Of a DNA stretch of 57,392 nt, positions 1-21,526 are shown piece after piece. Below the pieces are notes generated by a model. The model did no database searches. It saw only the letters and a list, made by a program, of their open reading frames with translations, and was not told the DNA's origin. The position numbers were made by a program, and so were the translations under genes. The stretch comes from Elsinoe ampelina (Eukaryota), in NCBI GenBank assembly GCA_010093995.1, contig ML992510.1:861127-918518 (forward strand), read 5' to 3'. Position 1 is the first letter of the stretch. Each line of letters starts with the position of its first letter.

Positions 1-1456
1 GGAGGGTGCCTGAATCGTGTGCGGTGTGTGGTGGGGTCGTGATCGTCAAAGATTGCGCGGATTAGAGCGAAAGATCGGTTCGTGCGAAGCTGGCAGTGGG
101 AGAGGAAAGATGGTAGATCTAAAGATGGGACAAGATTCATCAAAAGGGTAGCCCGGAAGTGGTTTATGACGGGCCGCAGAGTGATCGAGAGACGAGACGG
201 AGGGACAGCAACGGTGTACCGCCTTCTTAGGTAGTCTGTACCATCGTCCTTCAACAGCTGCCCGTGTCGCGGACCCAGACCAGCGGTAGCCCTGAAATGC
301 CACTTTGTGTCTGTTGGGATGCTTTTGGAACGTCTGATTGGCCCCCGGGATTGAGACGGCGTTGATGCGTTACCAAACTCCTGGCAAAGACTCGGGCAAC
401 TCCATCATCTGTCTCACTTTCGAATGCTGGTCTTGTATTGCCAGACCACCCTGCAACAAGCATCTTATCTCGGTGAGCAGAGACATGAAATCGGAAAGCT
501 AGTCTAAAGATGCCCGACCTGCGACTCCGTGTCGTCCGACTCGGGGTGCAGCCACGCCATCGTGGGTTCAGGCAATGGATCGACATTCCGAGATTTGGCT
601 CTCGACCTGGGCCCCAACTTCACTGTTTGAGGGGATATTTTGGGCAGCAATTGATCCGCGGAGGCTTGTTCTTTTTTCTTGACCACGGATATATTACTAC
701 AATAATAGATTTGATCTCTGGAAGAACGCAGGTTTCTCTTCAGCGCGTACAGCCGTGACAAGTCGGTGTGTTCTCAACAATCCTTTGCGACCCTCTATCC
801 TGGGCTGACTGCATGCGTGACTTCTTGTTCTGGAATCATTCTTCTGTCATCATTGGCTACGGCAGTGGTCCGGCGCACGCCGAGTCTATGTTGCGTGCAT
901 TAGCGCGGATGGATCGAAGAAGACCTCACGGGCCTGTCGACGCCATTTTCATTTCGCAGCCGAACATGCATGGATCCAGCTTGGACGAGAAACGCCATTC
1001 TTTCGGACACGACCGTCAGAAAATCATAGATTAAGTCCCACGAATCGTATGGTCACATCCCTCCGTGCTGAAAAAGGCTACAGTCCTGGATTGTACGAAG
1101 GGAAATTAGGTGTGTCTCCTGATCACGACCGTGTGAAATCTACAGGCCCATGTGGAGATTGACAAGGATCCCTGGTAGTCAGGGCCTCAAGACATGAGAC
1201 AACCATGGTCAGATCTCCTCGCTGAATCTTATCAACAAGCCTCTATGCGATCTCTGCCGTTAAACGACACGGTGACAAGAGTCAGTGGCCCTGTACAAAC
1301 CCTTGCCCATGATATCGACGGTCGATTCGTCCTCGGCCCAAGTTGCCTGAAGTGGTAGGTGTCCCTCTGACGTCACAGGTAACCTGTTCACTTTGAGCTT
1401 CACAAAGCGACGAGTGTGACAGACAATTTACCGTAGCACCCCAGGCTAAACTCATC

Positions 1457-17930: not shown

Positions 17931-18374
17931 TGTGGCGGAGGTGTAGTGATAAGTGCGTAGTGGTCGTATAGAGTGATGCGGTAGTGCAGGGCACTGTAGC
18001 GTAGCTGATGGAATACACGACGTCCAAGACCCAATTCGTTGAAGCGGAAGAGATCCAAGTCGCAAACTTTTGGACATGTATGCTTTGGCACGAAGTGTCG
18101 AGCTGTCATCCAATCTACGTCGGTTCGATCGACAGCGACCCCGCGTTTTTGCGTGGTTTACTCTCCAAAAACCAACCCCTCACTTCCCCAAATCTCCAAC
18201 TTTGTGAAAGTCGAAGGTGTAGACGTTGAGTGAGACAACATCACGATGGTTTGTTTAGACATTTCTACCACCGACAGTATTTTTTCCAAATCATCTACTT
18301 TCTGGACATCGGTAGCTGTTTATCAGTGACATTTCTATACACAATCTTCGTGTACAATAGCAATAGTAGACAGA

Positions 18375-19466
18375 ATGGCAGACACCATCGCTTTCATTGG
18401 TATGAGAGGTCCTGTATGATCCTACATGCCCCGACTGATAGTTTCAGGCTTGGGAGTCATGGGCTACCCCATGGCAGTCAATCTGAGAAAGAAGATGCCT
18501 TCATCACACAAGCTTCTGATCTGCGACGTGAGCAAAGATGCCCTCGCCAGGTTCCAATCGGAGATGAAAGGCAGCGGCCCCATTGAAGTAGTATCAAACG
18601 GAGCAGAAGCCGTAGCACAAGCAGTAGGTTCCCCACGATACCTCATACCAGCAGAGCTGAGGCTCCACTAGGATCAAGTCTACACCATGCTCCCCGGGTC
18701 CGAAGCCGTCGAAGCCGTCTACCTCGACCCCTCAACAGGCATCATTCCTCGCGCCACGTCAATCCTCACCTCCAACCCCTCCCAACGTAAAATAATAGTA
18801 GAATGCGGCACCATCGAGACCTCCACGATCCTCAAAGTCGCCGAAGCAGCCTCGTCCGCCTCCTCCTCGCTCTCACCCCCAGACCGCCTCACCTTCGCCG
18901 ACGCCCCCGTCTCCGGCGGGCCCATGGGCGCGGAAAAAGGCACTCTGACTTTCATGGTGGGCGTGACGGCCAAACCCAGCTTCCCGGCGATCAAAGAGGT
19001 GCTCTCGACCATGGGGCCCGCGGACGCCATCTTTCTCTGCGGCGACGTGGGCGCGGGCACGGCGTTCAAGATCATCAACAACTACCTGTCTGCCATCACG
19101 TCGCTGGCGGCGTCGGAAGCGCTCAACATCGGCGCCAAGATGAACCTCGACCTCAAGCTGCTCACGGACGTGATCAACGTATCGGGAGGCCAGTGCTGGG
19201 TGACGAGCAAGAGTAACCCCGTGCCGGGGGTGCAGGAGAACGTGCCGAGTTCGAGGGGGTATGAGAATGGGTTCAGGATCGAGTTGTGCAAGAAGGTGTT
19301 GGGCATGGGGAGTCGGTTGGCGGAGATGGTGGGGGCGAGGACGGTCTTGGATAGGCCGACGTTGGAGGCGTTTGAGGAGGCCGCGGCGGATGAGAGGTAT
19401 AAGGGGAAGGATGCGAGGGTGGTGTATAAGTGGTTGAATGAGAGTGAGGTGAGGAGGAGTGAGTAG
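18375..19466 (+). CDS. Beta-hydroxyacid dehydrogenase (3-hydroxyisobutyrate dehydrogenase family), copy 1; introns 18400-18447, 18624-18671
   Basis: Spliced MADTIAFIGLGVMGYPMAVNL; DAPVSGGPMGAEKGTLTFMVG; catalytic KIINN. Confidence 0.88.
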
Positions 19467-19756
19467 ATAGGGTGGGGCTGGGGGAGGGGAGGAGAGTTTA
19501 CTCGCCTGAATTGCATGTTGTTCAAGAGGTTTCTATCTCGTCTGTGAAGAAAGCGTTGCAATGCCTGTTGTCTTCACGCAAGACATTCCACTCCGCCCGC
19601 GCTCTCAATCACACAATTCAGCTCCATTTAATCAATAGGATGTCGATTGCTGGTCGTATCATGTTAAAATCCCTTCCTGCAACACTAATTATCTATGATC
19701 TGTTCGTACCTGACGAATGATTACCCAGCTGCGAGGTTTATAAAAGACGTCATGAT

Positions 19757-19764
19757 TATATAAA
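19757..19764 (+). promoter_or_regulatory. TATA element upstream of the tRNA gene
   Basis: TATATAAA about 35-42 nt upstream of the mature tRNA 5' end, the expected position for Pol III TFIIIB binding. Confidence 0.5.
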
Positions 19765-19798
19765 TTATTTCACTGAGATTAAGATGAAAATTTGCACC

Positions 19799-19952
19799 AC
19801 CGATATAGCTCAGTGGGTAACTCCGAGATCCCCGATTTCAACTCATCATTCTGATTTTATGTAGATTGGTTAGAGCGTGTGGCTTTTAGTGGGGCCATTC
19901 TCCCCTATTCTATTATACCTCAAGGTTCAGAGTTCGACTCTCTGTATCGGTG
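19799..19952 (+). tRNA. tRNA-Lys(UUU) with two intervening sequences (19813-19864 in the D-loop; 19889-19916 at position 37/38)
   Basis: Acceptor ACCGATA/TATCGGT, D stem GCTC/GAGC, anticodon arm TGTGG-CT-TTT-A..A-CCTCA, variable loop AGGTT, T arm CAGAG-TTCGACT-CTCTG, discriminator G; 74 nt mature after removing both inserts. Confidence 0.88.
19813..19864 (+). other. Putative spliceosomal (GT-AG) intron inside the tRNA D-loop
   Basis: GTGGGT 5' end, CTGAT branch-like motif at 19851-19855, TTTTATGTAG 3' end; 52 nt, the same size class as mRNA introns in this window. Confidence 0.7.
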
Positions 19953-19956
19953 CTTC

Positions 19957-19961
19957 TTTTT
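19957..19961 (+). terminator. Pol III oligo-T terminator
   Basis: TTTTT 5 nt after the tRNA discriminator base. Confidence 0.7.
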
Positions 19962-20486
19962 GGTGGGAGGGGGTTTTCTTACCGAAAATTCCAAGTGTTG
20001 AGGTCGGAGGGACAGAAGGAAATTTGCTTGGTTCCATTTCACATTTCACGCTTCACCCTACCCGAATGACTTTATTACTTGAACGTCGATAGCATACACA
20101 GGGCTATAGTACTTCGGTTTAAACCTTGAATATGTTGAGTGTAAGGCTGTCAAATATGCAATGTCAAAGTGAGCAAATTTTTTATCCAGGTATAACTACA
20201 ACCACGTGTAGGCTTTAACATGAGAATGGCCCGAAGACGTAGACATCTCTACCATTCAGATTGGGGGTAGGGCCCCGCAGATCCCCATGCGAACGACATT
20301 CACCGGACCATGAATAGTACAGTCGTCTGTTCGATGAATTGTTAACCGACTCTGAATCCTATTTGCCGCTCATTACAGTAGTCGATTAACGCGCTATCTC
20401 ACGACATTACTTGACCGGCCCCAATCTTAGTTGAGAAATCGCGTCGCTACGCTCTGCTCAATCAGACGTAGCTTGCGACCCAATAC

Positions 20487-21526
20487 CTACTTCGAATCTG
20501 TCGTACCATTCGACTCAAGCTCTTGCTTCCAATTCTCGTTGCCGCCGAGATATCTGTAAACCACTCTCGAGTCCAAATCCTTGCAGTTCGGATCATTCAT
20601 CGCCTGAGTATAGGTATCCAGTCCTGCTTCACCAAGAACATTCTTACTGCCGACCCTCTTGGCCATGTCCAAAGCCAGATTAAAGTCCTTACGCATCAGC
20701 TGCACCTTGAAACCACCCGCATAACCTCTCGAGCTGGGTGCATTCTCCACCACCCCGGGACAAGGACAGAAGCCATCACAGATAGCATTCTGCGCAGTAC
20801 CAGCATTGTACACCTTCGCCAACACCCTCGGGTCAAGACCGCTCCTCATACCCATGTCAAGCGCCTCACTGCATGCTATCGCGATGATGCCGGACAGGTA
20901 ATTATTGCTCAACTTCGCGGCCAGACCAAAACTCGGTCCTCCGCAAGGGATGATCTGCTTGCCCATTAGGCGTAGCAGTTCTGTTATCCTCGGAATGTTG
21001 GGGTCGGACTCGGCGCATCCCAGGAAGAACGCGATCGTCCCTGCGACGGCGCCATTGACTCCTCCTGATACTGGCGCGTCGTAGAATGAGGCGCTGGGGT
21101 ATCGCTTGTTGATCTCCTCTTTCACTTGCAGGTTGGTTGCGGTATCGATTGTTGAGGTGTCGATGAGTAGTTTGTTCGATACGTCGGAGGCTAGGATACC
21201 CGTTTCTGGTGTGAGGTATACTGATCGTACATGTGCGCCTTCTGGGACCATGGTGAAGATGACATCCTGTGTTGGGTTAGTCTGGTTTTCGGAGCGTCAT
21301 GCAGACGACAGGACTGTTTGCTTACCGACTTGTCTGCCACATCCTTTGCATTTGCGCCGACCACTACTTTGTCCGGATACTGAGATGCTAGGTCTTGTAC
21401 CACATCTTTCGAAATGTCGAACACATGTATCCTGGTGTCTGCTGGTAGTTTCTTCGCAAGGTGGCCGGCCATAGGCTTGCCCATTAAACCAAGGCCGATG
21501 AAGCCGACTGTCTTGAATTCGGACAT
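20487..21526 (-). CDS. Beta-hydroxyacid dehydrogenase (3-hydroxyisobutyrate dehydrogenase family), copy 2; intron 21267-21325
   Basis: MSEFKTVGFIGLGLMGKPMAGHL; DAPVSGGVNGAVAGT; KLSNNY; GFKVQLMRKDF. Confidence 0.88.

Follow-up and report, generated by a model that had tools for sequence, protein, structure and literature searches.

Sequence reading and ARAGORN analysis placed a tRNA-Lys(UUU) gene at 19799-19952 on the + strand of the window, i.e. the whole 57,392 nt stretch of Elsinoe ampelina DNA that was analysed (GCA_010093995.1, contig ML992510.1, 861,127-918,518 of the forward strand). The gene is split by two inserts, one of 52 nt (19813-19864) and one of 28 nt (19889-19916), and its body was read from the sequence as running from A1 at 19799 to the discriminator base G73 at 19952. 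In the ARAGORN cloverleaf obtained without the inserts, exon 1 (19799..19812) comprises the 5′ strand of the acceptor stem (ACCGATA), positions 8-9, the 5′ strand of the D-stem (GCTC) and A14. The 52 nt insert (19813..19864) follows in the D-loop, between positions 14 and 15; it opens with GTGGGT, carries CTGAT at 19851-19855 with the A at 19854, and closes with TAG. Exon 2 (19865..19888) holds the remainder of the D-loop (ATTGGTTA), the 3′ strand of the D-stem (GAGC), G26, the 5′ strand of the anticodon stem (TGTGG) and the loop bases CTTTTA with the anticodon UUU. The 28 nt insert (19889..19916) lies at position 37/38 and was identified as a canonical tRNA intron by the ARAGORN intron call and by the fold, in which its 5′ end is predicted to pair with the anticodon stem and loop. 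Exon 3 (19917..19952) was also delimited by ARAGORN and contains A38, the 3′ strand of the anticodon stem (CCTCA), a variable loop of 5 nt (AGGTT, with U48), the T arm, the 3′ strand of the acceptor stem and G73. All of these features are on the + strand. The gene, its D-loop insert, the boundaries 19813-19864, the GTGGGT start, the CTGAT with its A 10 nt from the end and the terminal TAG had all been given in an earlier note made from the letters alone, and every coordinate in it was exact.

A TATA element and a T5 terminator were also part of that description, and both are present on the + strand. Two TATA-like elements, at 19739-19745 and at 19757-19765, lie 60 to 34 nt upstream of the first tRNA position and probably serve as upstream promoter elements of the tRNA gene, and a T5 run at 19957-19961 is the expected Pol III stop. 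Within the gene, TAGCTCAGTGG at 19806..19816 (+) is A-box-like when read against the A-box consensus; its last four bases are the first four of the insert (GTGG). The T arm (19928-19944, +) is perfect and includes the B-box-like GAGTTCGACTC at 19930-19940. The 21 stem pairs are intact save for a U29-U41 mismatch. The CCTCA strand that gives rise to this mismatch recurs in 16 of the 130 related matches listed from metagenome contigs, so the mismatch is a family trait rather than decay. Broken stems or a lost promoter or terminator, as expected of a decayed pseudogene, were not found, the A-box-like element, the B-box-like element and the T5 run all being present. The locus is also transcribed, with RNA contigs covering 19800-20115 and 19800-20182. 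A thermodynamic fold of the full precursor kept the acceptor stem (pair probabilities 0.89-1.0) and did not form the D and T stems. It was given no weight, since tRNA sequences without their modifications are often folded wrongly by predictions of this kind.

The tRNA locus is flanked by two dehydrogenase-like genes, which, at the DNA level, do not form a recent inverted duplication, and only short, chance-quality repeat matches were found around it. Elsewhere in the window, a Pfam match to a fungal-specific transcription factor domain was obtained, and an alcohol-dehydrogenase-like protein groups among Ascomycota clusters. The condensin subunit 2 encoded in the window shares 95% identity with the Elsinoe batatas protein and 88% with its counterpart in Sphaceloma murrayae, which places the window in an Elsinoe-like, plant-pathogenic fungus of the Dothideomycetes. 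No other tRNA was found in the 57-kb window by ARAGORN in default and intron modes.

Standard searches of the intact window did not reveal the gene. ARAGORN in default mode called no tRNA, Rfam reported none at the gathering score, and the sole result of an E-value search for the locus was a 14.7-bit partial tRNA match. The intron mode of ARAGORN proposed a tRNA-Asn with an 80-nt 'intron' on the intact sequence, which was rejected as spurious. Removal of 19813-19864 in silico led ARAGORN to call tRNA-Lys(ttt), now with an intron of 28 nt at the canonical site, and removal of both inserts gave a clean 75-nt tRNA-Lys(ttt). The prediction that tRNA finders would miss the gene was thus correct for ARAGORN and Rfam, and in the comparison with and without 19813-19864 the tRNA-Lys(ttt) call appeared only after removal. 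The 'complete cloverleaf' broken by a D-loop insert, as the earlier note had put it, is restored once that insert is taken out, except that the second insert at 37/38 (19889-19916), which the note did not mention, must go as well. As for tRNAscan-SE, its description in PMC8450103 states that non-canonical introns are sought in archaeal mode only, with BHB models.

The D-loop insert has the signals of a U2-type GT-AG intron. Its GTGGGT fits the 5′ site pattern GTRNGY, its CTGAT fits the branch pattern CTRAY, and 10 nt after the branch A at 19854 it ends in TAG, which fits YAG. For comparison with local introns, RNA contigs verified two introns of neighbouring mRNAs by skipping them, at 18400-18447 and 18624-18671, each of 48 nt; the intron that had been said to end at 18447 is therefore real. 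One verified intron reads GTATGA...CTGAT with 9 nt after the branch A, and the other GTAGGT...CTGAG with 11 nt after it. A screen for segments whose removal restores an open reading frame yielded 12 candidates, eight of which we judged to be plausible introns, with lengths of 46-91 nt, CTRAC motifs mostly 9-10 nt from the end, and 5′ sites that are mostly GTAAGT or GTGAGT. The length of the insert (52 nt) compares with 48 and 48 nt for the verified introns and with 46-59 nt for most candidates. The resemblance to local mRNA introns that had been claimed for the insert thus holds against two verified neighbours, which are 48 nt long and carry CTGAT or CTGAG with the A 9 or 11 nt from the end.

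The frequency of such segments was determined with a strict joint test, applied on both strands to GT..AG segments of 45-60 nt, which required GTRNGY, YAG and a CTRAY whose A lies 8-12 nt from the end. It was passed by 11 of the 6,946 segments in the window, real introns and the 19813-19864 insert included. A looser pattern was not enriched in the window, with 25 and 19 occurrences on the two strands where random sequence would give about 25, so it is the precise spacing and the precise restoration of the D-loop that make the case strong, rather than the motifs by themselves. Two D-loop-like copies border the insert, AGTGGGTA to its left and AGATTGGTTA to its right, and these supply its terminal GT, and perhaps its AG, at no statistical cost. 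The two copies AGTGGGTA and AGATTGGTTA do not figure in the account of the earlier note. Folding of the insert was unexceptional against shuffled sequences (z = +1.04), Rfam gave no match for it, and no second copy of it was found in the 57-kb window or in the at least 120 metagenome loci fetched for comparison.

Owing to these two flanking copies, nine cut registers restore a D-loop when read from the sequence, and they lead to four different products. Only the GT..AG register places A at position 15, opposite U48; the others all lead to G15:U48. The related tRNA-Lys(UUU) genes listed, 92 distinct ones, have G:C as their 15:48 pair in 89 cases and A:U, G:A and A:C in one case each, with G15:U48 in none of the 92, which upholds the argument, advanced before these genes were compared, that A at 15 is the base that matches U48. 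Exact excision of 19813-19864 therefore restores both the ARAGORN call of tRNA-Lys(ttt) and the A15:U48 pair. A structural rule thus selects the very register that has splice-site ends. This supports the view that the insert is an exact GT...AG unit; removal of the unit would not follow from the register alone.

RNA assemblies were available from several runs. Two of them, X1 and X2, are RNA, as their contigs are spliced at both neighbouring mRNA introns and sequencing adapters are present. Contigs over the locus extend from 19800 to 20115 in X1, from 19800 to 20182 in X2 and from 19823 to 20130 in a third run, X7. These contigs show 0 differences from the window and no joint, retain both inserts where they cover them, and read through the T5 run. 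The locus is transcribed, and an unspliced, 3′-extended precursor exists; the earlier note had reckoned with an untranscribed locus, which the contigs from 19800 onwards dispel. The X1 and X2 contigs, from two studies, start at the same base, 19800, with no loose end and 1 nt inside the predicted RNase P site. The shared start is a weak hint that 19800 is a true RNA end, and it fits a + strand, 5′-processed precursor. Contig depth in X1 was 242.7 at the tRNA locus against 86.8 and 171.9 for the neighbours, figures that cannot be used to rank expression. The flanking segments 19714-19799 and 20183-20350 have no cover in X1 and X2, from which no conclusion was drawn.

The joint 19812/19865 expected of a spliced product was absent from the X1, X2 and X7 contigs, and contigs drop rare variants and short tips. 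In the same runs the neighbouring mRNA introns are removed from the contigs. Ordinary RNA-seq captures mature tRNAs poorly, and all that would set a spliced molecule apart from its unspliced counterpart is a 5′ tip of 13 nt, which, in our view, may well be dropped in assembly; the missing spliced form is for that reason weak evidence.

The 3′ extension in the contigs spans 19953..20183 (+), with ends at 20115 (X1), 20130 (X7) and 20182 (X2), and the X2 contig stops within a T6 run at 20178-20183. Part of the extension, 19983-20118, matches a contig of a related organism (run X6) with 11 changed letters and 2 gaps, the stretch 19983-20037 being identical; the X6 contig is 219 nt long and extends about 80 nt upstream of 19983. 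No Rfam family was matched by the extension at E values up to 10, its fold is ordinary against shuffles (z = -0.47), and C or D boxes of a snoRNA are absent from its + strand.

A pattern of 18 nt taken from the D-stem and anticodon arm, i.e. the core of exon 2, retrieved at least 120 metagenome loci with at least 130 tRNA-Lys(UUU) matches, and the exact 24-nt sequence of the T arm and acceptor had 0 matches in the metagenome collection. Among the 130 related matches listed, 36 carry an intron at the canonical site and 0 carry a D-loop insert. At 19 of the 130 matches listed, ARAGORN did not return a tRNA-Lys. On our reading, nine of these failures are due to a misplaced canonical intron, six are matches cut by contig ends, three are degenerate tRNA-like repeats (L003, L045 and L114), and one, L033, has a non-canonical interruption, the only one of its kind among the 130 matches listed. 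L033 is a tRNA-Lys(UUU) gene with intact stems and a T5 run and without a canonical intron. Its insert of 50 nt lies between T-loop positions 59 and 60 and reads GTACGT...AACTAAC...CAG, with 11 nt after the branch A. The locus was found through the tRNA pattern and the ARAGORN failure, and was not selected by splice signals. The earlier note had suggested looking for other tRNAs with GT-AG inserts, and L033, with a textbook GT...ACTAAC...CAG in its T-loop, is one.

A splice-and-rescan search was also carried out, in which 1,520 intron-like segments were removed one by one from 142,555 nt (the window and the fetched loci) and ARAGORN was rerun. It returned 69 junction-spanning calls. On our reading of these 69 calls, a hidden tRNA was uncovered in the 142,555 nt only by the window insert, listed at two overlapping registers (19813-19864 and 19817-19873), and by the L033 insert. 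The remaining junction-spanning calls were discarded: either their junction fell among the last few bases of a tRNA that is intact, or they fused neighbouring tRNAs.

From these data we conclude that 19813-19864 is a real, precisely bounded sequence of spliceosomal type inside an expressed tRNA gene. The best-supported reading of the locus, unproven and to which we give a probability of about 45%, is that of a live nuclear tRNA-Lys(UUU) gene with two kinds of intron, in which the 52-nt insert is removed by the spliceosome. The 28-nt insert at 37/38 would be a tRNA intron of the ordinary kind, which the tRNA splicing endonuclease cuts, and the 52-nt insert an intron of mRNA type (U2 GT-AG), which most likely entered by reverse splicing or by the intron-gain processes known in Dothideomycetes. 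Pol III would transcribe the gene from its A and B boxes, the A box being completed by the GTGG of the insert; the 5′ end would be trimmed by RNase P; the spliceosome would then excise exactly 19813-19864 in the nucleus; and endonuclease and ligase would finally take out the canonical intron 19889-19916. The identity of the polymerase, the removal by the spliceosome and the order of the steps are what we infer.

Several lines of evidence count for removal by the spliceosome: the fit to local introns, the rarity of such segments (11 of 6,946) and the A15:U48 register; the intact stems, the transcription and the contig starts at 19800; and L033 together with the precedents in U6, other snRNAs and rDNA. 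The lack of a BHB motif, the unremarkable fold and the lack of an Rfam match make other removal routes unlikely. On the other side, the contigs keep the insert unspliced while neighbouring mRNA introns are removed, which counts weakly against it. Also to be counted against it are the terminal GT/AG that come partly free from the D-loop-like copies, the random frequency of the loose intron pattern, the D-loop insert in 0 of the 130 related matches listed, and the 5′ exon of only 14 nt, which is base-paired in two stems. Pol III transcripts are not the usual substrate of the spliceosome, and the transcript is probably made by Pol III, which counts against it too, as does the possible existence of other intact Lys(UUU) genes.

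The rival that deserves most attention supposes a disabled gene: intron-type sequence landed in one copy of tRNA-Lys(UUU), the transcripts are dead ends awaiting nuclear decay, and other Lys(UUU) genes do the decoding. We regard this as rather unlikely, though it agrees with the contigs, where only unspliced, 3′-extended RNA is seen, and with the 24-nt T-arm and acceptor search, which indicates that the sequence of this copy is not widespread in the metagenome collection. It also agrees with the treatment in PMC4090602 of D- and T-arm insertions in eukaryotes, which usually occur in one of many synonymous copies and are taken as pseudogenes. Against it stand, though not decisively since a young pseudogene would share these traits, the intactness of the stems, the terminator, the canonical intron and every splice signal, the A15:U48 pair, which is an allowed one, and the equally intact second case, L033. 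Group I or II self-splicing can be dismissed on the length of 52 nt, which is far too short, together with the absent Rfam match and the fold z of +1.04.

Another possibility, which we consider improbable, is that the tRNA-shaped part provides a Pol III promoter and a 5′-processing handle for a longer RNA, spanning 19799 to about 20115-20183 (some 320-385 nt), which would function without being spliced, as in tRNA-led dicistronic or leader-promoted genes. This would account for contigs of three runs that extend 160-230 nt beyond T5, one of them stopping in the T6 run, and for the match of 19983-20118 to the contig of the related organism (11 changed letters, 2 gaps). However, the extension lacks an Rfam match (E = 10), a notable fold (z = -0.47) and + strand C/D boxes; a bare promoter would not need intact stems in the acceptor, anticodon and T arms, or an anticodon-loop intron; and read-through of a weak T5 stop is a simpler account of the extension. 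The least probable alternative, and a very improbable one, is removal of the D-loop insert by the tRNA splicing endonuclease and ligase. The fungal enzyme finds the places to cut by measuring from the mature domain in the direction of the anticodon loop, and the 52-nt insert is at 14/15, in contrast to the 28-nt insert 19889-19916, which occupies the endonuclease position 37/38. A BHB motif does not form at any 52-nt register, those that restore a D-loop included: in the best one, 3 of 4 central pairs form and the helices on either side have 0-1 bp. The insert is also unstructured. Moreover, its signals match those of spliceosomal introns, which the endonuclease model does not predict. In favour of the endonuclease are the need of the same pre-tRNA for this enzyme at its canonical intron and the existence in some eukaryotes, such as Cyanidioschyzon and nucleomorphs, of ectopic D-arm and T-arm introns that are excised (PMC4090602).

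Returning to removal by the spliceosome, the window insert in the D-loop and the L033 insert in the T-loop both sit in elbow loops, which are exposed in the folded tRNA and are, in our opinion, plausible targets of reverse splicing. Two cases, a D-loop one in an Elsinoe-like fungus and a T-loop one in the unrelated L033, are the ground for a broader and tentative proposal, to which we give somewhat less than even odds: in fungi as well as in other eukaryotes, spliceosomal introns may colonise the elbow loops of tRNA genes transcribed by Pol III, and may be spliced out of them.

Textbooks treat spliceosomal and tRNA introns as unrelated systems with separate substrates. A search of full-text literature turned up no description of spliceosomal introns in tRNA genes; most subscription journals lie outside its coverage, hence this is no proof of absence. 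Eukaryotic tRNA introns are described as sitting at 37/38 in PMC4090602, where the exceptions named with D- or T-arm introns are nucleomorphs and Cyanidioschyzon, and where BHB motifs matter. The ectopic tRNA introns of Cyanidioschyzon merolae and of cryptophyte and chlorarachniophyte nucleomorphs, as presented in PMC4090602 and PMC3728597, resemble the tRNA-Lys insert in their D- or T-arm position and in the occasional company of a canonical intron. They differ from it in being 3-24 nt long (nucleomorphs) or dependent on a BHB, whereas the tRNA-Lys insert has 52 nt, no BHB, and GT, branch and AG signals.

Closer parallels come from other non-coding RNA genes. Spliceosomal introns are known in U6 (a Pol III gene), in U1, U2 and U5 snRNAs and in ascomycete rDNA, with reverse splicing discussed as their origin, and the list in PMC5855946 of hosts for non-mRNA spliceosomal introns names no tRNA. 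The U6 introns of fission yeast and other fungi (Tani and Ohshima 1989, 1991, via PMC5855946) are likewise GT-AG, branch-point introns in a short, structured Pol III non-coding RNA gene; according to PMC5855946 they are thought to have entered by reverse splicing, and their presence is species-specific. In contrast to U6, the host here is a tRNA, not known to touch the spliceosome's active site, and the 5′ exon has only 14 nt. The tRNA-Lys precursor also carries an endonuclease-type intron, and its D-loop insert is known from its signals, whereas splicing has been demonstrated for U6. The introns of ascomycete rDNA and of U1, U2 and U5 (Bhattacharya et al. 2000; Takahashi et al. 1993, 1996, via PMC5855946) are similar in being of spliceosomal type in non-mRNA hosts, some of which are not transcribed by Pol II, and differ in host RNA and polymerase. 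In Dothideomycetes, new spliceosomal introns arise from introner-like elements (PMC4457414). These belong to the same fungal class and are a source of introns at new positions; unlike them, being multi-copy and in protein-coding genes (PMC4457414), the insert has no second copy in the 57-kb window or the fetched loci (at least 120).

If the tRNA-Lys insert is indeed removed by the spliceosome, a tRNA would join the short list of non-mRNA hosts of spliceosomal introns, here beside an intron of endonuclease type, and one small RNA would need two unrelated splicing machines. A tRNA in need of both would be a natural test of how a Pol III transcript is spliced when its first exon has 14 nt. It would also bear on how introns spread, by reverse splicing into exposed loops of abundant RNAs versus as mobile introns. 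Since eukaryotic tRNA finders do not seek such inserts, a genome may seem to lack a tRNA species that it has. Should the reading hold, some pre-tRNAs would have to be processed by the spliceosome as well as by the tRNA endonuclease, and such genes would be silently lost in standard annotation.

The tRNA-Lys(UUU) gene (window 19799-19952, plus strand) sits between two 3-hydroxyisobutyrate-dehydrogenase-like genes (18230-19466, plus strand; 20487-21296, minus strand), with Pfam NAD_binding_2 and NAD_binding_11 domains and both pointing toward the tRNA in a convergent arrangement. No long DNA repeat common to the two genes was found, which rules out a recent inverted duplication; they are therefore old paralogues.

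RNA contigs extend 160-230 nt past the T5 stop of the tRNA (window 19953-20183), one of them ending inside a T6 run. A contig from a related organism aligned to window 19983-20118 with 11 letters changed and 2 gaps, and was identical throughout 19983-20037. An Rfam search of the 3′ extension gave no match and its folding revealed nothing unusual; it may represent read-through or an RNA of no known kind.

The 5′ end of the canonical intron (window 19889-19916) is predicted to pair with the anticodon stem and loop, as is usual in eukaryotic pre-tRNAs. This intron starts with GTGGGG, close to the GTGGGT at the start of the D-loop insert.

Of the 130 tRNA-Lys(UUU) matches listed, 16 have TGTGG facing CCTCA in the anticodon stem, which leaves a U29-U41 mismatch (metagenome loci L004, L009, L018, L019, L020, L030, L033, L034, L037, L044, L061, L067, L074, L090, L096 and L108). 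Because it recurs, and is accompanied by a canonical intron in 12 of these 16 listed matches, we conclude that the mismatch is a trait conserved in one lineage of tRNA-Lys(UUU).

The tRNA-Lys(UUU) gene of L033 (about 305-439, minus strand) has a T5 run and unbroken stems. Its T-loop is interrupted between positions 59 and 60 by a 50-nt insert (329-378, minus strand), whose splice signals, GTACGT, AACTAAC and CAG, have the textbook form. Degenerate tRNA-Lys-like units were found within repetitive AT-rich DNA at L003, L045 and L114, the last with two partial copies in tandem, and look like tRNA-derived repeats of a eukaryote.
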